Assembly: GCA_026204955.1 (NCBI GenBank)
Contig: GCA_026204955.1_4545.1
DNA from: a phage
Length of the DNA stretch: 44,324 bases
Reading direction: 5' to 3' (one strand)
Position numbers and translations under genes: made by a program
Shown: piece after piece, positions 10,174 to 44,312 of the stretch
Position numbering within the stretch: the first letter of the stretch is position 1
How the letters are laid out: every line of letters starts with the position of its first letter
The notes under the pieces: generated by a model
The model's database searches: none
Told to the model about the DNA's origin: nothing
The model's input: the letters and a program-made list of their open reading frames with translations, nothing else

Positions 10174-10201
10174 GTATTACACCGCTCGATCAAGAATGCA
10201 A
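10174..10201 (-). promoter_or_regulatory. sigma70-like promoter for antisense lipoprotein cassette
   Basis: Reverse strand -35 TTGCAT (10201-10196), 16-nt spacer, -10 TAATAC (10179-10174); extended -35 context AAATTGGTTGCAT shared with other sites. Confidence 0.4.
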
Positions 10202-10222
10202 CCAATTTACGAGGATTTAGCT

Positions 10223-12538
10223 ATGGCAGCGGGTACTCTATCCGTAACGAACAACAGCAAGGCGGTAGTAGGGGTCGGCACGACGTTTACCGCGTTTAAA
10301 GCTGGCGACTTCTTAACGCTGGTGGTAGGACAAGTCCCATACACCGTGGCAATCGCGTCCATTGAAAGCGCAACCGCGCTTACGCTGGTGCTGCCGTTCG
10401 ACGGCCCAACGGCAACCGGCCTCGCGTGGGATGGTGTTAAGCGCGATACCATGTCACTGGCGACGATGGGCGTAACCGTACAGGCGCAGAAAGCGTTGCG
10501 ATTGATGATCTCCGATGAAAACAACTGGCGTGCAATCTTCGGAGACGAAGAAGAAATCTCGATCACGCTGCCGAATGGTCAGGTAATGCAGGGTATGTCG
10601 TGGGGCTACCTGTCGTCTTTGCTGAAGGAAGTAGACCCTGTTGAGATGCGCAACCTGCAACAACAAGCCGCCGCATCTGAAGCCGCCGCGCAAGGATTCC
10701 GCAACGAGGCGGAAGGCTTCAAGAACACCGCGAATACCGCGAAAGACGACGCTGTAACTGCGAAGACCGCGGCTGAAACGGCGCAGGGTAAAGCCGAGAC
10801 AGCTAAAACGGCAGCAGAGTCCGCGAAGACCGCCGCGGAGACAGCTAAATCGCAGGCCGTAACCGCTAAAGACCAGGCTAAAGTATTCCGCGACGAGGCT
10901 GAGGGCTTTGCAAATAGCGCGGACGCAAAAGATAAAGTACCGTATGCTGGTGCGATGTTGGCAACTGCAACTGGAATTGCAGACATGCTCAAGCAGTTGC
11001 GCGATAATGTTAAGGGTGGATTCTGGCGCATCAATGATACATCTCAGTTCCCTGAGGGCGAGATGAAACCTTTTGTACACGGATCAGGTATTTGTGGCGG
11101 TGCTGGGGATACATTCTTTGCTATTAATACTGCTTACCCATATGGGCGAATTAAAGTTTACACGGGTAACAATAGCGCTATCGATGGTACGAGTGGAAGG
11201 GTGGGTGCCCTTGAGTTGGCTGGGCTAGATTCACCCACCTTTACGGGTACAGTGAATGCGCCTAAGATTCGTGTTGGCAATGTTACACTACGGCCCGTAA
11301 CTTCCGGAGAAGGAAGCGGAGACGGGGTTGTTTGGGAATCCCGCAACGCCACGGAGGCAAGTTTTGGCATTGCGAATGTCGGCGGTGGGTCCGCGGTTTT
11401 CCACAACTACTCAAAACCGGCAAACGGATCCGGCGTGGCTACAGGAGTGCTTATTGGGGGGTACGGGTCGCGCCCGTGGACCGGAACGGAATACACAGAC
11501 CATAGTAACGTGTCCCAGCACTTCCTGATGGACGGAACCGCTTCGGCTACTAACCACGGCGGCTGGTTTAGGTTGCTAACAACCCCATTGAATAAGACCA
11601 GCGCCGATCGTAGGCAAACATTCGCGACCAGCAACAACGGCGATTTATATGTTGGGTACGATGTGCCTATGGGGCTTTATAAGCTAACGCAGGAAAGCTA
11701 CAACGGATTGGAATTATTAAACGGTCGCGGTCTTAAACAAGTAAATAACTCGAATAATGAAGTAGCCTTAATCACTCCACGCAATGGGCTAACGGCTAAT
11801 ATAAATTTCAGGGGTGTTGCTTTTGACGGCACAATGACCGGAGCTAAAGGCGCCACTCAGCCGGGCGACAACATGTGGTTATCTTTTGCAGGGCATGACG
11901 GTGTAAGATTCACGGGTGCCGCTGCCGGTATGCGGATTCAGGCGTCGACTGGATGGTCAACCACAAACACGCAATGCGGAATAACGTTTGCGACAACGAA
12001 AGCAGGGTCTACGCAGAGGGTGGACCGGTGGAGTATTACTAGCGACGGGTCCCTGTCCCCCGCGGCTGACAACACATACCCGATCGGCAGCGCCGTTTCC
12101 CGTGTTACCGCAGTCTTCGCAGCAAACGGCGCCATACAGACCTCGGATGCCAGACTCAAGACCGAGGTTAGAGGTTTAACAGAGGCTGAGATGGGTGCCG
12201 CTAAAGAAATCGCCCGCGAGGTTGGTATTTTCCAGTGGCTTGCGCGAGTAGCTGAAGAGGGGGATGAGGCGAGGCTCCATGCCGGTATTACCGTGCAGAA
12301 AGTGATGGAAATCATGAGGTCTTATGGTCTGGACCCCTTGAAGTATGGATTCGTGTGCTACGACGAATGGGAGGAGACTTCAGAGGTTATCAGCGACCCC
12401 GATGATAATTCGAAGTCGACGATAAAGATAACTCCCGCTGGCAATAGGTATAGCTTGCGATATTCGGAACTAAACGTGTTTATCGCCCGAGGACTTGAGC
12501 AAAGAATCTCAGAACTGGAGGCTAAGTTAGCTGGTTGA
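10223..12538 (+). CDS. tail fibre protein with C-terminal intramolecular chaperone (S74-like) domain
   Basis: 771 aa from ATG 10223 (GAGGA RBS); Ala/Lys/Thr-rich heptad-like repeats (AAETAKTAAESAKTAAETAKSQ); C-terminal segment TSDARLKTEV...GLDPLKYGFV resembles the autoproteolytic chaperone domain of phage tail fibres and endosialidases. Confidence 0.7.
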   Translation: MAAGTLSVTNNSKAVVGVGTTFTAFKAGDFLTLVVGQVPYTVAIASIESATALTLVLPFDGPTATGLAWDGVKRDTMSLATMGVTVQAQKALRLMISDENNWRAIFGDEEEISITLPNGQVMQGMSWGYLSSLLKEVDPVEMRNLQQQAAASEAAAQGFRNEAEGFKNTANTAKDDAVTAKTAAETAQGKAETAKTAAESAKTAAETAKSQAVTAKDQAKVFRDEAEGFANSADAKDKVPYAGAMLATATGIADMLKQLRDNVKGGFWRINDTSQFPEGEMKPFVHGSGICGGAGDTFFAINTAYPYGRIKVYTGNNSAIDGTSGRVGALELAGLDSPTFTGTVNAPKIRVGNVTLRPVTSGEGSGDGVVWESRNATEASFGIANVGGGSAVFHNYSKPANGSGVATGVLIGGYGSRPWTGTEYTDHSNVSQHFLMDGTASATNHGGWFRLLTTPLNKTSADRRQTFATSNNGDLYVGYDVPMGLYKLTQESYNGLELLNGRGLKQVNNSNNEVALITPRNGLTANINFRGVAFDGTMTGAKGATQPGDNMWLSFAGHDGVRFTGAAAGMRIQASTGWSTTNTQCGITFATTKAGSTQRVDRWSITSDGSLSPAADNTYPIGSAVSRVTAVFAANGAIQTSDARLKTEVRGLTEAEMGAAKEIAREVGIFQWLARVAEEGDEARLHAGITVQKVMEIMRSYGLDPLKYGFVCYDEWEETSEVISDPDDNSKSTIKITPAGNRYSLRYSELNVFIARGLEQRISELEAKLAG

Positions 12539-12542
12539 AAAA

Positions 12543-12570
12543 GAAAGGGCCATACGGCCCTTTCTTAATT
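12543..12570. terminator. bidirectional terminator between convergent tail fibre and 12565 gene
   Basis: GAAAGGGCC-atac-GGCCCTTTC perfect 9-bp stem, T-rich on both flanks. Confidence 0.65.
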
Positions 12571-13140
12571 TGAGTTTTCCCAGTCCATCTTGCGCCGCAC
12601 CAGCGGGCTTTCGTAGTAATCCTTGCCTTCAACTTCCACTAAAGGCCAATCATTAACAATGACGTATGGCTCCGCGATATCTTCAATAACGCCGTGCGCG
12701 CTATGTTGTCCGAACGATACGCCCACCAGGATAACACCGGCAACGCGACGGGTCAGATATTCGCGAGCGCAACGTGCCTCAACCAGTCCGCGACGGATGC
12801 CGCTGGTGGCCTTAACCTCGTAGGTCCAGACGGCATCGATCACATGCTCGCGGAAGTCTGGACCGGACTTCACCTTGCGCTTGCCGACCATGATGATATC
12901 GCCGCGGTCAATGGTGTTGGCGCTAAACAGGCCGGTACGCATAAGTAAGCCTTGCGGTACGCAACTACGCCCGCCCGCCTGCCCCTCAAGGTACATGCCC
13001 GCAAACATTTCGCCCAGCACACCGACCAGTCGGCTTTGCTTGCACGCGTCAGACTTTAAGCGCCACTGATCAAACTCGATGCTTGCTATCATTGCAGCCA
13101 GGTGGAATTGTTTACCAGATATTTCATATTCGCCGTACAT
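12565..13140 (-). CDS. hypothetical protein, PD-(D/E)XK nuclease-like motif
   Basis: 191 aa; GPDF...(14 aa)...YEVK arrangement matches the PD-x(n)-(D/E)xK signature. Motif-only inference. Confidence 0.35.
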   Translation of the reverse strand: MYGEYEISGKQFHLAAMIASIEFDQWRLKSDACKQSRLVGVLGEMFAGMYLEGQAGGRSCVPQGLLMRTGLFSANTIDRGDIIMVGKRKVKSGPDFREHVIDAVWTYEVKATSGIRRGLVEARCAREYLTRRVAGVILVGVSFGQHSAHGVIEDIAEPYVIVNDWPLVEVEGKDYYESPLVRRKMDWENSN

Positions 13141-13182: not shown

Positions 13183-13704
13183 TTATTTCAGTGCGCTATG
13201 TACCAGTGTTTTTTCCATGTTGCGGAAGTCTTCCGGCGTCATGAGGATTTTGGATCCGTCTTCGCCGGTGAGCACGACCATAGGCTGGACTTCTTGGTCT
13301 GCAATGCCGAAATTGGCGGCTTTTACAGTCTTACCCACCGATGCAGAAGGATTCCACGTCCCCGCGGAGGCGATGGGCCAACCTTTTAGGCTGTCGAATT
13401 GTGCTGCCGTTGTGTCGATCTGAATCTCGTCATGCACGGTCATGTACGACTCGCCCAGCAAGGCCGCATACGCTACCAGGTCGACGATATTGTCTTCCTG
13501 GTGCTTACGGTGCTGGCGCACCAGCTTCAGGCAGATCAAGAAGGTCCAGGCTTCTTGCTCGGTCAGGTCGCGACCGGTAAGCGCGTTAAACACGGCGGCA
13601 ATTTGTTTCGCGCTGCGTTCCTCTTTCGCGTTGTCATAGCCGTTTTCTTTTCCGCGCTGTTCCATAGTGGTGGCGGCGTTTTTGCAGTATTCGTATGCTT
13701 TCAT
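13183..13704 (-). CDS. hypothetical phage protein (helical N-terminal domain, resembles a conserved phage DUF)
   Basis: 173 aa; N-terminal segment ERSAKQIAAVFNALTG...LICLKLVRQHRK...DNIVDLVAYAALLGE resembles a phage domain of unknown function (family name from memory, unverified). AGGA RBS; structured 5' UTR hairpin 13721-13741. Confidence 0.3.
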   Translation of the reverse strand: MKAYEYCKNAATTMEQRGKENGYDNAKEERSAKQIAAVFNALTGRDLTEQEAWTFLICLKLVRQHRKHQEDNIVDLVAYAALLGESYMTVHDEIQIDTTAAQFDSLKGWPIASAGTWNPSASVGKTVKAANFGIADQEVQPMVVLTGEDGSKILMTPEDFRNMEKTLVHSALK

Positions 13705-13757
13705 GATGTGGTCCTTTTTCGGGGAGGCCGTATTGCCTCCCGACGCGTTAACTATAG

Positions 13758-13779
13758 TGCAACCAACCTATTGGTTGCA
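13758..13779. promoter_or_regulatory. perfect palindromic operator-like site TGCAACCAA-ccta-TTGGTTGCA
   Basis: 22-bp palindrome with 9-bp arms overlapping the stop codon of the HAD-like gene and upstream of the 13704 gene. Confidence 0.5.
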
Positions 13780-14238
13780 AGTGAATTTTGCAACGTTTAT
13801 TGCGTAAATTTTCGGGACCAAATCACCACACGCCCGACGAATTGCCGCGATGTTCTTCTCGCAATCTTCAATGATGACCAGTTCCGACACGTCTGCGTAG
13901 CAGACCATTTTGAACACGGCGCACGCCTTAAACTCTGGCGGCGGTGTGTCGTCCAGCATGTGGCGCATAAACAACCGGCCCACCGGGAAGACCTCCAATT
14001 GCTCGGCGGTGGTGCCCCAACATTCTCGCTGCCGGTTTGTCAGATACGCTATCTCGAAGCCTTGCTCTTTGTACATGCGCAGCAGCGGCAGCATATCCAT
14101 GTTCAGATCTTCGCGTACGTGCGCTTTGTGCCACTTTGCCCAAAATGTTGATTTCGTTTTTATACCCGGAACCAGGTCGGCGCGTGCATCACTCGAACCA
14201 TTAATAACGCCATCAAGATCACAAATCAGTAGTTTCAT
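13768..14238 (-). CDS. HAD-superfamily phosphatase-like protein
   Basis: N-terminal MKLLICDLDGVI matches HAD motif I (DxDG[TV]); 156 aa, size typical of phage nucleotidase/phosphatase-type HAD proteins. Confidence 0.5.
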   Translation of the reverse strand: MKLLICDLDGVINGSSDARADLVPGIKTKSTFWAKWHKAHVREDLNMDMLPLLRMYKEQGFEIAYLTNRQRECWGTTAEQLEVFPVGRLFMRHMLDDTPPPEFKACAVFKMVCYADVSELVIIEDCEKNIAAIRRACGDLVPKIYAINVAKFTCNQ

Positions 14239-14468
14239 TTTAAGCTCTCAATAAGGGTGTATCGGGCGCTGCGCGCGGTGAAGGAGTTGCACACGAAATG
14301 GCAACGCTGAGTCATGACAAGCCAACCGGTGAGGTCAAGGCCCAGGATGTATTCGGGGCGAGACGCGCGCACCACACGATTGCGTCGCGGGTCGATGTTA
14401 TAGTCTCTTTGCATTTGGTCTACGACCGCGGGGTCGCGGTCAACGATTAAGATATTCATGTAACTCAC
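14235..14468 (-). CDS. hypothetical protein
   Basis: 77-aa ORF overlapping the neighbouring genes in an operon; no recognisable motif. Confidence 0.3.
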   Translation of the reverse strand: MSYMNILIVDRDPAVVDQMQRDYNIDPRRNRVVRASRPEYILGLDLTGWLVMTQRCHFVCNSFTARSARYTLIESLK

Positions 14469-15389: not shown

Positions 15390-15416
15390 AAAAAAGGGCG
15401 TCCAAACCGGACACCC
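15390..15416 (-). terminator. rho-independent terminator within leftward operon (after HNH-like gene)
   Basis: Reverse strand reads GGGTGTCC-ggttt-GGACGCCC then T6 (one G-U pair); promoter-like element immediately upstream. Confidence 0.5.
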
Positions 15417-15418
15417 TC

Positions 15419-15447
15419 AATATAATGCAACCTATATGATTATGCAA
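15419..15447 (-). promoter_or_regulatory. sigma70-like internal promoter of leftward operon
   Basis: Reverse strand -35 TTGCAT (15447-15442), 17-nt spacer, -10 TATATT (15424-15419); 17-mer identical to the site at 10196-10212. Confidence 0.45.
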
Positions 15448-15452
15448 CCAAT

Positions 15453-15776
15453 TTACGAATAAAAATTTGGGTCGCGCGCAACGTCTACCAGATACAGGTT
15501 GCTCATGCGGTTGCCGTAGTGCCCTGGAGTGCGCTGGCGGCACACAACGGCGAAGCCTGGAGGGATTGTATGGCCCGTCTCAATAATCCACGCCACGCGT
15601 GCACCAGACAGCGTCTTGCCGTTGCATTCGATGCGCGTGCCGCCATCGGCAGTGTTAAGGTTGCCAATTTTGCAGCCGGTGGACTTCAGACGAATGACGC
15701 CGGTTTTGCTGTCGTAGGAGAATAACTGGTTAGTCATTGCAACCGAAAAATCAATGGCTTCGAATGTAGTATTCAT
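15453..15776 (-). CDS. HNH-family endonuclease-like protein (possibly degenerate)
   Basis: 107 aa; segment AWIIETGHTIPPGFAVVCRQRTPGHYGNRMSNLYLV parallels HNH_3-type homing endonuclease cores (...G..VDHIDGN..NNR..NL.LV). Start ATG overlaps the stop of the upstream extension frame. Confidence 0.4.
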   Translation of the reverse strand: MNTTFEAIDFSVAMTNQLFSYDSKTGVIRLKSTGCKIGNLNTADGGTRIECNGKTLSGARVAWIIETGHTIPPGFAVVCRQRTPGHYGNRMSNLYLVDVARDPNFYS

Positions 15777-18170: not shown

Positions 18171-18344
18171 TTATTTTTGTTCTGCACGGTAGCGGCGCTG
18201 CCGTTCGCGCTCTTTCTTATTGCGGCACGATTTGCACTCTGCCCGATACCCGTCTGGACTGCGCGCAGTCTTACCGGTGTATTTGTGGAACTGGGATAGC
18301 GGCTTTACACAGCCGCAATTACTACAACGTTTTTCTTCAATCAT
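18171..18344 (-). CDS. small zinc-ribbon protein
   Basis: Internal start MIEEKRCSNCGC...CKSC gives a 57-aa protein with two CxxC pairs and a basic C-terminus; the longer track ORF overlaps the VRR-NUC gene in another frame. Confidence 0.3.
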   Translation of the reverse strand: MIEEKRCSNCGCVKPLSQFHKYTGKTARSPDGYRAECKSCRNKKERERQRRYRAEQK

Positions 18345-18384: not shown

Positions 18385-18663
18385 CTATGCGACCAATTCA
18401 GCAACCAATAAATCGCAGTCGGATATGTTGTCGATGACGCGAACGTCAGCACCGCGGCGGACCATTCGCTCATGCTCACGTACCTGGTGCGGCTTCGGTT
18501 TTCCACCGGGGCGCTTCACTTCGACGAACACTATTTTGCCGTTGATTATAATAATCAGGTCGGGCGCACCCGCGCGCCCCTCCCATGCCAGTTTTCGGCA
18601 GAATCCGCCGACCTCTTTCACCCGTTTCATAAGGTGACTTTGAATCTTGCCTTCTGGCGTCAT
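18385..18663 (-). CDS. VRR-NUC domain nuclease
   Basis: 92 aa; GAPDLIII..GKIVFVEVKRPGGK...Q..E matches the VRR-NUC PD-(D/E)XK pattern (D...E.K). Confidence 0.6.
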   Translation of the reverse strand: MTPEGKIQSHLMKRVKEVGGFCRKLAWEGRAGAPDLIIIINGKIVFVEVKRPGGKPKPHQVREHERMVRRGADVRVIDNISDCDLLVAELVA

Positions 18664-22022: not shown

Positions 22023-22047
22023 CTTGGTTGCTAATCTACTTGGTTGC
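22023..22047. repeat. direct repeat CTTGGTTGC x2 (16-bp periodicity) upstream of DUF2815-like gene
   Basis: CTTGGTTGC at 22023-22031 and 22039-22047 in the intergenic leader. Confidence 0.45.
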
Positions 22048-22057
22048 GCCTGAGCGG

Positions 22058-22300
22058 TCAAGCGTTTTTATTAAAAAGATTTCGTGTCACGTAGTTGGTG
22101 GCGTTCTCGATCCAGCTTAACGGCGGGCGGTCGATGTTCTTCTCCACCCAGTCGACGGCAGCGTCGCGATATCCGTCGTCCAGCCAACGGGTTGGATGAC
22201 GAATCATCCAGGCCACCATCAACACGCCTTGCACGCAATGCAGGATAAAGCCCAGCGCGCCGAGCAAAAACATCAATAAGATTGCGAATACTTTATTCAT
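22058..22300 (-). CDS. small membrane protein
   Basis: 80 aa; N-terminal hydrophobic stretch FAILLMFLLGALGFILHCVQGVLMVAWMI consistent with 1-2 transmembrane helices. Confidence 0.35.
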   Translation of the reverse strand: MNKVFAILLMFLLGALGFILHCVQGVLMVAWMIRHPTRWLDDGYRDAAVDWVEKNIDRPPLSWIENATNYVTRNLFNKNA

Positions 22301-24923: not shown

Positions 24924-24953
24924 ATAATAGATTGGTTGCAGGATGGGTGTCAA
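24924..24953 (-). promoter_or_regulatory. leftward early promoter
   Basis: Reverse strand -35 TTGACA (24953-24948), 18-nt spacer, -10 TATTAT (24929-24924), upstream of acidic-repeat protein gene. Confidence 0.45.
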
Positions 24954-24964
24954 CAACTAATTTC

Positions 24965-25099: not shown

Positions 25100-25130
25100 C
25101 GTTGGTCATTAACCAACTGAGGGCAGAGCA

Positions 25131-25460
25131 ATGAATGTAAACGACGCAATCGAAATGTTAACGAAGACTGTTTGCAGTGAGACAAGCCGGTCATGGGCTT
25201 ATACAGATGCCGTGGGGGCGGTGTTATTTGAAATCGAACGTCTGCGCAGTGTCGAAAAAGAATTGCGCGCGAAGCTGGAATTACTCAACGGTACGGCGGC
25301 CAGCAAGCTGCAAAAGCACAATGAAGAAATGGAAGAATACAAAAAACAGGTTATCCGTTTGCGCGCCGAGGGAAAATCGTGGGCGATGATTGCCGAGTTG
25401 ACCGGAATTAATCAGAGCACAGTGCGCTCCTGGGTACGCAATAATAAAACTTCTAAGTAA
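25131..25460 (+). CDS. HTH-domain DNA-binding protein (putative regulator)
   Basis: 109 aa; coiled-coil-like N-terminal region; C-terminal helix-turn-helix GKSWAMIAELTGINQSTVRSWVRN; first gene of rightward operon downstream of TTGACA-17-TAGTTT promoter. Confidence 0.5.
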   Translation: MNVNDAIEMLTKTVCSETSRSWAYTDAVGAVLFEIERLRSVEKELRAKLELLNGTAASKLQKHNEEMEEYKKQVIRLRAEGKSWAMIAELTGINQSTVRSWVRNNKTSK

Positions 25461-27735: not shown

Positions 27736-27841
27736 ATTCTGCGCGTATTGGTTGCCATTTTGGGTGTTTTTAACTGGTCGCATTGGTTGCCGTGTAGTGT
27801 AAATATAGTGAATAGTTATGCAGTTTTATTGCATAAAGTAA

Positions 27842-27944
27842 GCGGGACAAAAAGCGGGACAAACAAGGGGCGGGACAAAGCGGGATAGCACCCCAGTCCC
27901 GCCCCGGATGACGCGGCCTGGAGAGGAGCGGGACAAGCGGGACA
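27842..27944. repeat. iteron array A: GCGGGACA repeats (ori-like region downstream of primase/helicase)
   Basis: GCGGGACA at 27842, 27854, 27870, 27928, 27937; variant GCGGGATA at 27880; inverted GTCCCGCC at 27896-27903. Confidence 0.6.
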
Positions 27945-28158
27945 AACCCCAGTCTTTCAGACTAGACGGGGGTCAACGGCCCCCCTCGTCTGAGACTGCA
28001 TAAAATCCGGGGATTGCAAAATACACGGCAGCATGATGCGTATTGCGGTCGTTGATGAACTAGGCAACCAATGCGGGTTGCATTATGCTGAGTGAAAAAT
28101 GCAGTTTGCAGTCACAGCAGATAGCGATCAACTTTTTCATGCGCGTGATTAATATTGG

Positions 28159-28187
28159 TTGCATTCACCCCGGCACCCTGCTATATT
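28159..28187 (+). promoter_or_regulatory. promoter for 28216 operon
   Basis: -35 TTGCAT (28159-28164) within ATTGGTTGCAT, 17-nt spacer, -10 TATATT (28182-28187); a second ATTGGTTGCA overlaps the -10 and start region. Confidence 0.45.
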
Positions 28188-28215
28188 GGTTGCACACCAA
28201 CATGAGGACTGAACA

Positions 28216-28542
28216 ATGAAAGCGATTATCTGGAATTACGCAATGGCGATGGCGAAGGCACAAGAAGCGGCGGAGTTCGCCGGTGAAGGAGCGGAAGCGG
28301 TCGAAAGACTATCGGCAGCGTGGTCCGTTGTTCGCGTCACGCAGCAGGCCATAGCCTGTATGCTTGAGCGCCGATTCGACACTATGGAAGAGATCCAGCC
28401 GTTGGCGAACGCAATCCAGGACTACGCGATGGCATTTGCCCGTGAGCGCCTGGCGTATCGCTTCGGTATCGGTGAGACGGCAGTGACAAACGTTGCCCGG
28501 ATTAAAGCCCAGCGCGAACTATTCGCCCAGCTTGCGAAATAA
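28216..28542 (+). CDS. hypothetical protein
   Basis: 108-aa ORF; GAGGA RBS; first gene after the iteron region and TTGCAT-17-TATATT promoter. Confidence 0.4.
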   Translation: MKAIIWNYAMAMAKAQEAAEFAGEGAEAVERLSAAWSVVRVTQQAIACMLERRFDTMEEIQPLANAIQDYAMAFARERLAYRFGIGETAVTNVARIKAQRELFAQLAK

Positions 28543-31558: not shown

Positions 31559-31564
31559 TGAGCA

Positions 31565-31589
31565 AGCCCGCCGTATTGGCGGGCTTTTT
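31565..31589 (+). terminator. rho-independent terminator after lysis module
   Basis: AGCCCGCC-gtattg-GCGGGCT followed by TTTTT. Confidence 0.6.
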
Positions 31590-31676
31590 ATTGTTCGACC
31601 TGCGACCAATTAATAGCCCATACTGCGGTCGCCGTGGTATATTGACCGCGGACAATCTGAATCAGGAAGATATGCA

Positions 31677-32819
31677 ATGCACCCGCAAACCAAAATCACC
31701 GACGAGCAATTGATCGCCGAGTTGCAATCCGGCACTACCGCGAAAGAGATTGCGAAGAAGTACGGCCTTTCCCTACGAAACGTCTACATGCGCAAAGCCC
31801 GCCTGTCGAAGAAAGGTATTGGTCACGGTAACGATGCCGTAATCCGTAAGCGCGTTGCCGATGGCTTCGGCGTTAAACGCGTATCCGCCCTGGTGCGCGG
31901 AAATGGCGAAGAGGTCATGTCGTGGGTTATCACTGAGCAGGACAAAGAGCGCCAGCTTGAAGCAATGCGCGCCGTTGTCGAGGGTATGAACAGCGAAATC
32001 ACACCGGCAGCACCAGTAAGCGCCCCACCAGTCCCGATCCAGGCACTTGACCTACTCAACCTGTACACAGTGTCAGACTTCCACCTGGGCATGTTGGCAT
32101 GGGGCGAGGAGACTGGCGAGGATTGGGATATGGCAATCGCCGAAGACCTGTTTTACCGCTGGTTTGTCGAAGCCTTCGCACGCGCACCGGACGCAGGCAC
32201 TGCCGTAATTAATATCCTCGGTGATATGGCGCACTTTGATAGCCTTGATGCCGTCACCCCAGCCAGCGGACACATACTGGACGCGGATACCCGCTACCAG
32301 AAACTGGTCCGCTACATGATTCGCATGGTGCGCAACGTGGTGGAACTGGCGCTGCAAAAACACCACAAAGTCAAACTGCTAATCGTCCAGGGTAATCATG
32401 ACGAGTCTGGCATGATTTGGCTGGCTGAAATGTTCAATACCCTGTATGAGAACGAGCCGCGCGTCGATGTGGACACGTCACCGGACGTATACAAGATGGT
32501 GCAGCACGGCAAGACCACGCTGTTTTTCCACCACGGGCACAAAGCACGCTTTGACGCAATCGAGACGGTTATGATTGCTAAGTTCAGGAAAGCATTTGGC
32601 GAAAGCGAGTACAGCTACGCGCATGTAGGCCACTTGCACCACCAGAAGATTGTTGAATCCCACAACATGATTGTTGAACAACACCGGACACTAGCAGCGA
32701 AAGACGCATATGCAAGCCGCGGCGGTTGGATGAGCGGTCGCAGCGCAAACGTCATCACCTATAGCGCCAACTACGGCGAAGTAGCGCGCTTAACCATTAG
32801 CCCGGAAATGTTGAAGTAA
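31677..32819 (+). CDS. HTH domain fused to calcineurin-like metallophosphoesterase (Mre11/SbcD-like or phosphatase)
   Basis: 380 aa; N-terminal HTH (TTAKEIAKKYGLSLRNVYMRKARL); phosphoesterase motifs SDFHLG (D-x-H), GDMAH (GD), QGNHDE (GNHD/E), HHGHK (GH-x-H). Confidence 0.55.
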   Translation: MHPQTKITDEQLIAELQSGTTAKEIAKKYGLSLRNVYMRKARLSKKGIGHGNDAVIRKRVADGFGVKRVSALVRGNGEEVMSWVITEQDKERQLEAMRAVVEGMNSEITPAAPVSAPPVPIQALDLLNLYTVSDFHLGMLAWGEETGEDWDMAIAEDLFYRWFVEAFARAPDAGTAVINILGDMAHFDSLDAVTPASGHILDADTRYQKLVRYMIRMVRNVVELALQKHHKVKLLIVQGNHDESGMIWLAEMFNTLYENEPRVDVDTSPDVYKMVQHGKTTLFFHHGHKARFDAIETVMIAKFRKAFGESEYSYAHVGHLHHQKIVESHNMIVEQHRTLAAKDAYASRGGWMSGRSANVITYSANYGEVARLTISPEMLK

Positions 32820-37956: not shown

Positions 37957-38469
37957 CTACAAACGCATCGGCTTGATAACAAGGAAGGCACCGCCTTTGA
38001 AAAGCACACGTGTCGCCTTGTCTACTCCCTGAAATTCCAGTTTTAAGCTATCAAACTTACGGTCGAACAATTTAGCAATTTTGCAGGCGTCGGACAGGTA
38101 TTCCCCGGCAAACCCTATAGCCTCCACTTTAGCGCTGTCGAAAGACGTAACTCTACGCCAGTCTGGGAATCGGCCGTCTACGATCTCTACGGGTATGGTA
38201 CCGATTAATACGTCTTTACTATCAAAGAACGCAGCGGATGTGCCGTCTATGTTGCAGTATTCGAATTTAGTAGGTAAGCGGCCTTTAATTGCTACTATTT
38301 TACTTTCACCTTCGGGAACAACCGCGGACCCGCAGAACAAACGATGACCGTCGGTGGCCACGATGAATCCTTTCTCGTCGAAAAACACACCATTCAGATA
38401 GTACCGCACGTCATTAGTTGCGGCGCACATCATAGCGGCTTTAAGATCGGCATAGTTAACTTTAATCAT
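37957..38469 (-). CDS. truncated DNA polymerase III beta sliding-clamp (DnaN) homologue
   Basis: Preferred ATG 38469 (GAGGA RBS) within track ORF 37957-38601. Segments [41 protein letters not shown] and C-terminal LVIKPMRL recalled to match E. coli DnaN [42 protein letters not shown] and C-terminal VVMPMRL; only about 169 aa versus about 366 aa. Confidence 0.6.
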   Translation of the reverse strand: [170 protein letters not shown]

Positions 38470-38490
38470 TGTCATTTCCTCATGTTGGTA

Positions 38491-38514
38491 TGCAACCAAT
38501 ATATTGCAACCAAT
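38491..38514. repeat. tandem TGCAACCAAT x2 in divergent region between clamp-like and scaffold genes
   Basis: TGCAACCAAT at 38491-38500 and 38505-38514, adjacent to the RBS of the clamp-like gene. Confidence 0.45.
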
Positions 38515-38533
38515 CCACCAATGCAAGCAAATT

Positions 38534-44046: not shown

Positions 44047-44312
44047 GCGGGACAGGCGGGACGTCCCCGTTTCGTCCCGCTTGTCCCGCCCCTGTAAAAC
44101 TGCATACTTACTCACTTTATTTGCTTAAATTAAAAGCGGGACAGGCGGGACGTCCCGGTCCGACACCCCCTGAAAAGTGCTTACTTATGCATTTTTAGTG
44201 CATAAAACAAACGGGACAAAAAGCGGGACAGACCAGGGGCGGGACAAATCGGGACGTCCCGCCGTCCCCATCAGTGTTGCCGGGGGTTTCAGCCGATCGG
44301 GACAGCGGGACA
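44047..44312. repeat. iteron array B: GCGGGACA / GGGACGTCCC repeats, paralogous to array A
   Basis: GCGGGACA at 44047, 44136, 44223, 44239, 44305 plus variants; palindromes GGGACGTCCC at 44058, 44147, 44251; inverted TGTCCCGCC at 44082-44090; block 44205-44324 aligns with 27830-27950. Confidence 0.6.

Follow-up and report, generated by a model that had tools for sequence, protein, structure and literature searches.

The stretch of DNA analysed here (the window) is a phage contig of 44,324 nucleotides (GenBank assembly GCA_026204955.1, contig GCA_026204955.1_4545.1), and the element in question is a 22-bp palindrome at positions 13758-13779. As many as 159 phage records matched the 3-kb stretch around it with 80-95 % identity, nearly all of them from Escherichia/Shigella phages of the genus Dhillonvirus (HK578-like siphophages). 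The proteins of phage Oekolampad mapped in the same order along the whole window, which is a near-complete Dhillonvirus (HK578-like) coliphage genome. The palindrome is located inside a leftward operon spanning ~25109 to 12565, between a gene for a HAD-like phosphatase and a gene for a DUF6378 protein. It consists of two inverted copies of a short motif, and it is this asymmetric 9-10-mer, together with its position relative to a -10 hexamer, that is the conserved unit, not the inverted pair.

The palindrome, TGCAACCAACCTATTGGTTGCA, displayed perfect arms of 9 bp around a non-palindromic spacer of four nucleotides (ccta) and overlapped the TAG stop codon (13770-13768, minus strand) of the phosphatase gene. 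Its coordinates, arms and spacer, the overlap with the stop codon and the placement between the HAD-like gene and the gene starting at 13704 in the leftward operon had been given in an initial annotation of this DNA, and all were borne out. The sequence was the sole match in the window, even with three mismatches allowed. An inverted repeat with 9-bp arms is by itself not significant: the window held four distinct perfect ones (six raw, nested versions included), versus 2.0 +/- 1.7 in Markov simulations. The other three were G+C-rich terminators, the palindrome at 13758-13779 being A+T-balanced. It nevertheless stands above chance, because its arms copy the most over-represented 10-mer of the genome and because the site is conserved across the genus. 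Scanning IMG/VR for the inverted pair returned the N4 form on contigs of Dhillonvirus size, plus one contig of 211 kb; by a rough estimate, matches at spacings other than N4 look like chance.

The k-mer statistics were based on the window and on loci L001, L002 and L016, other loci being counted by DNA string search. An unbiased scan ranked TGCAACCAAT first among the over-represented 10-mers of the window, of Oekolampad and of HK578 alike (nine copies versus 0.10-0.11 expected). The related string GCAACCAAT was present in 13 to 15 copies in the same three genomes (13 in the window) versus 0.5 expected, and each of five complete genomes of relatives carried 13-16 exact copies. Two more distant Dhillon-like metagenomic contigs retained the enrichment, with 14 copies versus 0.8 expected and 13 versus 1.2. 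Exact GCAACCAA cores were intergenic, or no more than 12 nt away from an intergenic gap, in 15 out of 17 cases, such gaps making up 5.5 % of the sequence (binomial P ~1e-17), and the motif was present in 10 out of 24 intergenic gaps of at least 20 nt. Only a T on each side of the core was preferred, and the site can therefore be described as an asymmetric 8-10-mer, (T)GCAACCAA(T).

Elsewhere in the genome the 10-mer occurred singly or in direct repeats with periods of 9 to 35 bp. Its register with respect to promoter hexamers was recurrent: it lay over the -35 (where TTGGTTGCAT gives TTGCAT), ended 1-2 nt before the -10, or lay over -10/+1. The composite TTGGTTGCA-N-TATA was encountered three times in the window versus 0.02 expected, always ahead of a gene read from the same strand, and recurred at orthologous places in other loci. 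In Dhillonviruses about ten promoter-like sites were marked by the motif, and these many asymmetric, promoter-overlapping copies have the layout of a multi-copy phage operator of the P1 C1 type. The literature was searched for the motif string, for Dhillonvirus promoters and transcriptomes and for HK578 promoters; the motif was not described there, and only consensus-based promoter annotation was encountered.

The minus strand of the focal site reads cacTTGCAAccaataggttggttgcacTATAGT. It contains hexamers and a spacing of sigma70 type (TTGCAA-18-TATAGT, matching nine out of 12 consensus positions in a consensus scan), and the same holds for two distant Dhillon-like contigs, L061 and L062, found through homologues of the DUF6378 protein. 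A match of 9/12 alone is weak evidence. The case for a promoter is made by conservation and by the repeated architecture.

The site was aligned in 14 Dhillonvirus relatives and compared with L061 and L062. Further searches with the DUF6378 protein returned only genomes already known, and one distant homologue sits in an unrelated phage encoding an RNA polymerase. Besides the invariant -35 hexamer, the 14 relatives displayed TATAGT, TATATT or TACATT as -10, with spacers of 17-18 nt. Most of the aligned genomes shared the inverted pair. JohannBuxtorf and slur05 carried instead the direct repeat TTGCAACCAATAATGCAACCAAyTAyATT, from which no stem is possible (-3.5 versus -11.7 kcal/mol), and BLAST placed this form, TGCAACCAATAATGCAACCAA, in about ten phages, among them TH11, TH13, McMelon, Pandora71, slur05, slur06, JLBYU60 and JohannBuxtorf. 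The opposite direct repeat was found in LM40P1 (TTGGTTGCAATCCGTATTTGGTTGCACTATATT), which has a different upstream gene, and at the same place in L061 and L062 (TTGGTTGCAT-N7-TTGGTTGCA(T/G)-TATATT). Gluttony (L011 499-530) had the 4-nt spacer inverted relative to all other genomes (CCTA for TAGG), with loss of the TAG stop and an extension of the phosphatase by 15 residues; template switching at the palindrome could yield such an inversion.

Three things were kept throughout: a proximal copy that adjoins the -10, a distal copy that in either orientation supplies TTGCAx as -35, and the spacing. The symmetry was not kept. The arms never displayed compensatory substitutions and were invariant, as were single copies elsewhere. 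Lost symmetry combined with invariant arms speaks for a protein that recognises duplex DNA, and against both an RNA stem and a dimeric operator of fixed geometry. The palindrome is one of three arrangements, interchangeable with one another, in which a monomer-like site occurs. The "typical dimeric operator geometry" read into it by the initial annotation was not upheld: orthologous sites were inverted, direct or oppositely direct, unlike symmetric dimeric operators of the lambda, 434 or LacI type, and the other copies of the 10-mer were single or directly repeated. The regulated expression proposed there for the two distal genes fared better, as the site stands at their head with a conserved hairpin in the 5' untranslated region (UTR) and is very likely regulatory, but not as a dimeric operator; the promoter-like sequence enclosing the palindrome (-35 TTGCAA, -10 TATAGT) and the genome-wide motif family had been overlooked. 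Table 1 lists the features of the locus together with the other motif-bearing sites.

Table 1. Coordinates of the palindrome, of the putative promoter and its surroundings, and of further motif-bearing sites in the window
Feature	Position	Strand	Basis or remark
22-bp palindrome TGCAACCAA-ccta-TTGGTTGCA, two inverted motif copies	13758..13779	both	
Distal motif copy TGCAACCAAT; its 5' part plus T13780 forms the -35-like hexamer; holds the phosphatase stop codon	13770..13779	-	
Proximal motif copy, TTGGTTGCA on the minus strand, ending 1 nt before the -10	13758..13766	+	
-35-like hexamer TTGCAA	13775..13780	-	invariant in 14 aligned relatives
-10-like hexamer TATAGT, 18-nt spacer	13751..13756	-	
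Predicted transcription start, 5-7 nt downstream of the -10	13744..13746	-	promoter geometry
5'-UTR stem-loop GGGAGGC-AAUACG-GCCUCCC	13722..13741	-	folding and conservation
Ribosome-binding site AAGGA, 7 nt ahead of the DUF6378 ATG	13712..13716	-	
HAD-like phosphatase gene, 156 aa, upstream of the palindrome	13768..14238	-	sub-threshold Pfam match
TAG stop codon of the phosphatase gene, in the palindrome spacer and first base of the distal arm	13768..13770	-	
DUF6378 gene, 173 aa, first downstream of the palindrome	13183..13704	-	ATG 13704-13702
Last operon gene, 191-aa protein without assigned function, second downstream of the palindrome	12565..13140	-	
Bidirectional terminator where the 191-aa gene ends	12541-12566		
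Motif copy, divergent region between lipoprotein gene and lateral tail fibre gene	10197..10206	+	
Two motif copies, period 17, over the -35 and beside the -10 of TTGCAT-17-TATATT (minus strand), upstream of the gene at 15430/15370	15426..15452	+	
Two motif copies, period 12, upstream of TATAGT (TTGCTG-17-TATAGT) and of the gene at 18344	18388..18409	+	
Two motif copies flanking the -10 of TTGACC-17-TAGATT, upstream of the SSB gene	22024..22048	-	
Motif copy in the spacer of near-consensus promoter TTGACA-18-TATTAT	24931..24940	-	
Candidate binder, 109 aa, long helix then C-terminal helix-turn-helix; first gene of the rightward early operon	25131..25460	+	
Five motif copies (27747, 27782, 28063, 28154, 28185), 480-nt non-coding stretch after the primase-helicase gene	27747..28194	.	
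One-mismatch copy TGCGACCAAT directly after terminator 31564-31586, upstream of the gene at 31677	31601..31610	+	
Three motif copies, periods 14 and 17, over the -35, spacer and -10/+1 of TTGCAT-17-TATATT (minus strand), upstream of the beta-clamp-like gene 38475..37957	38491..38530	+	

The hairpin that the initial annotation had placed after the palindrome is real and conserved, with seven pairs rather than eight: GGGAGGC (13722-13728) pairs with GCCTCCC (13735-13741), and G13721 has no partner. The stem was kept in 14 out of 14 relatives with arms changing together (GGGAGGC/GCCUCCC, GGGGGC/GCCCCC and GGGGC/GCCCC, of 7, 6 and 5 bp), as is typical of a conserved RNA hairpin. In L061 and L062 the stem had an unrelated sequence (CGGGGCGG...CCGCCCUG), with -17 to -23 kcal/mol and z of -3 to -4.5, and likewise stood 9 nt from the -10. 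Its maintenance despite changes in both arms and replacement of the sequence is good evidence for a structural role. The stem-loop would begin 3-5 nt from the 5' end inferred for the transcript, ahead of the AAGGA; like 5'-terminal stem-loops described elsewhere, it may stabilise the messenger RNA. McMelon (L015 470-850), like TH11, TH13 and Pandora71, carried an extra gene of ~80 codons between the focal promoter and the DUF6378 gene. This gene was flanked by two copies of the ~30-nt hairpin segment ACCACATCGGGAGGCAATACYGCCTCCC, a segment that marks a cassette boundary or insertion point and can occur within a transcript.

At the sites of type TTGCAT-17-TATATT, one motif copy supplies the -35 and the others end 1 nt before the -10 and/or overlap -10/+1. 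The 18388/18400 site had the same layout, and the gene at 28216 is preceded by a TTGCAT-17-TATATT with copies 28154/28185. In the HK578 GenBank record, the site orthologous to 24931 carries a promoter annotation. With respect to transcription, a forward orientation was seen for the copies at 22024/22040 and 24931 and a backward one for those at 15426/15443, 18388/18400 and 28154/28185; both orientations were present at 13758-13779. One copy is seemingly inside the open reading frame (ORF) of the tail fibre. It most likely lies upstream of the true start at 10223, a start with a GAGGA ribosome-binding site at which the alignment with the Oekolampad protein begins.

Three further observations concern these sites. 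A canonical terminator (11-bp stem plus TTTTTT) comes 1 nt after the motif-bearing TTGCAT-17-TATATT promoter in 15394-15452 (minus strand), so that transcripts started locally would lack the 5' arm of the stem and read-through from upstream would terminate. A 17-mer, ATGCAACCAATTTACGA, was identical at 10196-10212 (upstream of the tail-fibre gene) and 15442-15458 (after the HNH gene), which suggests that a promoter module was copied. The 172-aa gene at 37957-38475 (minus strand), in a variable locus, matched the DNA polymerase III beta clamp below threshold, in the central domain (E 5.5e-5, motif RYYLNGV...ATDGHRL), and was not homologous to the Oekolampad gene at the same position.

Regarding the genes next to the palindrome, the match of the 156-aa protein to the Pfam HAD IIIB acid phosphatase family was likewise sub-threshold (E 1.2e-4, 22.1 bits for a cut-off of 27). 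Just upstream of the palindrome, the same operon contains a 74-aa gene (14235-14459, minus strand) between those for the Dam methylase and the phosphatase. It matches in position and length Ksap1, the Dhillonvirus protein that triggers KpAvs2 defence (PMC11564622).

A Pfam scan covered about 30 small or unannotated proteins of the window, and only the product of 25131-25460 was found to have a DNA-binding domain. This 109-aa protein matched HTH_23 (30.8 bits), Sigma70_r4_2 (27.7 bits) and HTH_28, all above the cut-offs, and its gene is preceded by the promoter TTGACA-17-TAGTTT. Its AlphaFold model (pLDDT 86) consisted of a short helix, a helix of 59 residues and a C-terminal helix-turn-helix (HTH). 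The family comprised 24 clusters, all Dhillonvirus-like, and the motif is likewise confined to such phages. Among 13 family members, residues 47-106, including the recognition helix, were almost invariant and the first 45 hypervariable, which suggests that the N-terminus may be under diversifying selection. Loci L016 and L017 displayed a perfect motif copy 3-12 nt downstream of the -10 of the HTH gene's own promoter, where the window has TTGGT-CATTA-ACCAA; such a motif in the gene's own leader suggests possible autoregulation. As for co-variation of protein and motif, the HTH was invariant wherever the motif occurs, the single diverged homologue being that of CHD5UKE2, which keeps the key helix residues SW..IAE.TGIN.ST.R.W. 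On this circumstantial evidence, the coil-HTH protein is the best candidate for binding the motif. The 15-bp palindrome TTGGT-N5-ACCAA was itself present in exactly three copies (25102-25116, 28186-28200 and 38485-38499), and at none of the other spacings from 0 to 11. Each lies between the -10 and the ribosome-binding site of a gene, namely the HTH gene, the gene at 28216 and the beta-clamp-like gene; it may be a true symmetric operator form or a small leader hairpin.

We favour, with moderate confidence, a reading in which the motif copies belong to a sigma70-type internal promoter and are bound by a phage DNA-binding protein, most likely the product of 25131-25460, that blocks RNA polymerase; the activity of the promoter, the binding of a protein, which protein this is and the direction of its effect are all predicted parts of it. 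The distal copy would supply the -35 TTGCAA and the proximal copy would fill the spacer to 1 nt before the -10 TATAGT (13751-13780, minus strand). Transcripts would start near 13744-13746, form the stem-loop 13741-13722 almost at once, and encode the DUF6378 protein and that of the last operon gene. The motif copies would be sites for a phage-encoded, sequence-specific protein, whose occupancy would most likely block RNA polymerase, so that early and middle promoters would be tuned or temporally shut off. Occlusion is favoured because the copies cover the -35, the spacer and -10/+1, even at promoters with near-consensus hexamers.

Several points weigh against this reading. The focal promoter matches the consensus at only 9/12 positions, and such matches are only mildly enriched (six in 4.5 kb versus 3.2 +/- 1.5 expected). 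Searches of the literature turned up no data on transcription starts, expression or binding in any Dhillonvirus. As to the candidate protein, Foldseek returned only weak matches limited to the HTH (LuxR/GerE, DeoR and resolvase DNA-binding domains, E > 0.4) and no full-length relative, and both motif and protein are genus-wide, so that their co-occurrence cannot discriminate. The CHD5UKE2 protein is much diverged (149 aa, 47 % identity in the C-terminal part), yet the motif is retained elsewhere in that phage, and its HTH gene lacks the motif in its own leader. Finally, weak -35 hexamers (TTGCAT, TTGCTG) at several motif promoters would fit activation too.

Activation is the main alternative, and an unlikely one by our estimate: the motif would be a positive element, an activator or a phage factor associated with the polymerase would bind it and take the place of a weak -35, and the focal site would be a middle promoter that is switched on. 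Six sites where the motif coincides with a weak -35 (TTGCAT, TTGCAA or TTGCTG; 3-4/6 matches) and a good -10 speak for it, as do the score of the candidate's HTH as sigma70 region 4 and the place of its gene, first in the early operon behind a near-consensus promoter. Yet the motif is also found in the spacer or over -10/+1 of promoters with a near-consensus -35 (TTGACA at 24931-24960, TTGACC at 22024-22066), in both orientations and at variable distances, and such positions are typical of occlusion. Repression and activation may also be combined. We would tentatively, and with more doubt than belief, consider the early and middle programme of Dhillonviruses as a single-factor regulon, where the coil-HTH protein would read the asymmetric 10-mer at ~ten promoters in any orientation and spacing, like a flexible dimer, repressing some and substituting for the -35 at others; its DNA-reading head would be invariant, and its hypervariable N-terminus could be selected by host targets or defences. 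If true, this would be a compact temporal switch, one not described for Dhillonviruses, phages that are regarded as simply lytic and as having promoters of host type.

A host regulator as binder, for which CytR is the obvious candidate, appears improbable. CytR recognises half-sites TGCAA/TTGCA in inverted or direct orientation with variable spacing; its optimal layout is AYGTGCAAC-N10-13-GTTRCATT, direct repeats in either orientation are also bound, and flanking CRP sites are normally needed (PMC3454398). The focal palindrome does fit this layout (TGCAAC-N10-GTTGCA), and the phage copies are alike in their variable orientation and spacing. However, AACCAA(T), the best-conserved part of the motif, lies outside the CytR octamer GTTGCATT, the T of TGCAA is replaced in seven out of 17 exact cores by residues that are conserved across genomes, the AA completing the octamer before TGCAAC was present at only two out of ten sites, and no TGTGA-N6-TCACA was seen by eye beside the focal site. 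Even less credible is a role at the RNA level, in which a hairpin ending the phosphatase message would be a terminator, processing site or 3' stabiliser, or would affect translation termination at the embedded stop codon. The transcribed palindrome would form a perfect 9-bp stem over the stop codon (-11.7 kcal/mol), and the 106-nt region is more stably folded than its shuffled versions (z = -2.3). But the minus strand has no U-tract, only 4/9 pairs are G-C and CUAUAGUUAACG follows, unlike an intrinsic terminator; the pattern scan flagged the palindrome as terminator-like only on the plus strand, which is antisense to all local genes. About ten direct-repeat phages, JohannBuxtorf and slur05 included, cannot form the stem, none exists in L061 and L062 (z ~0), no compensatory arm change was found, and Rfam 15 gave no gathering-score match in the whole window and none at E <= 1 in 13600-13900. 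We give least credit of all to a functionless by-product, that is, chance or a recombination scar between promoter modules at a mosaic boundary. It is true that ~2 perfect 9-bp inverted repeats per window are expected by chance, that similarity to LM40P1 and "rolling" ends at or beside the motif, and that an extra gene was inserted downstream in McMelon, TH11 and Pandora71; against this, the 10-mer is ~80-fold enriched, almost exclusively intergenic, in fixed register with the -10, and kept in distant relatives with different surrounding genes.

Other repeats were present in the window. The repeat GCGGGACA(A) forms two clusters, one at 27842-27945 (five copies, after the primase-helicase gene) and one at 44047-44312 (seven copies), its 8-mer being found 15 times in the window versus 1.6 expected. 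The latter cluster has the tail chaperone genes on one side and the tape-measure gene on the other, and also contains three GGGACGTCCC palindromes (44058, 44147 and 44251). The two regions are paralogous, as Oekolampad "hyp18" and "hyp52" both match 27808-27990. The hyp52 frame contains a stop in the window, and ORFs annotated there in relatives may thus be spurious. Both arrays resemble iterons or structured non-coding elements, and that beside the helicase may be an origin. For the promoter-associated motif, a role as replication-origin iterons was considered and rejected: its copies are scattered and tied to promoters, and the GCGGGACAA arrays look more iteron-like. The 8-mer ACGGCAGC was present in 29 copies over the whole window versus 3.4 expected, mostly inside genes (20 on the plus and nine on the minus strand); codon or peptide bias or a polar signal could account for this excess.

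Dhillonviruses are common coliphages, included in the BASEL collection, used in studies of defence systems (KpAvs2/Ksap1) and proposed for therapy; no description of their transcriptional programme was found in the searchable literature. A 10-mer marking ~ten promoters, together with a single candidate regulator, amounts to a testable map of transcription units. For engineering, it offers a handle, as internal promoters could be controlled and genes inserted safely at points like the one that McMelon uses naturally, and the motif sites account for the clustering of mosaic boundaries and gene insertions there. A practical lesson is that a palindrome need not imply a dimeric operator; here the repeat unit counts, not the symmetry.

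Among known systems, the operators of E. coli CytR share with the Dhillonvirus sites a TGCAA/TTGCA core in inverted or direct repeats with flexible spacing (PMC3454398). They differ in that conservation of the phage motif is shifted to AACCAAT, no flanking CRP site was apparent by eye, and the motif shows much stronger conservation than the weak consensus of CytR. The downstream hairpin resembles the stem-loop of the ompA 5' UTR, a stable structure a few nucleotides from the 5' end (inferred, in the phage) and ahead of the ribosome-binding site; unlike ompA, McMelon has a second hairpin copy inside the operon without a promoter, and the role of the hairpin may consequently not depend on a position at the 5' end. 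MotA boxes of phage T4 occupy a fixed position (-30) in one orientation at middle promoters. As in these promoters, a phage motif stands in for a poor -35 ahead of a good -10 at several sites, but Dhillonvirus copies are also found in the spacer and over -10/+1, and in both orientations.

The stoperators of mycobacteriophage L5, bound by gp71, are asymmetric sites of ~13 bp present in ~15-30 copies in short intergenic regions genome-wide, in one orientation, where they block elongation. Many asymmetric intergenic copies throughout the genome are common to both systems, but the mixed orientation and the promoter-locked copies of the Dhillonvirus motif point to control of initiation, which makes this likeness less close than that to P1 C1. 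C1 is the immunity repressor of a temperate phage, with asymmetric operators of 17 bp in many copies over the genome that overlap promoters and are sometimes paired in a palindrome-like manner. A short asymmetric site, many promoter-overlapping copies and occasional palindrome-like pairs make it the closest in architecture. Dhillonviruses differ from P1 in being described as lytic, in the length of the motif (9-10 bp) and in the candidate, an unrelated coil-HTH protein of 109 aa that is a predicted binder. Like C1, this one small phage protein, here a candidate only, would control many transcription units.

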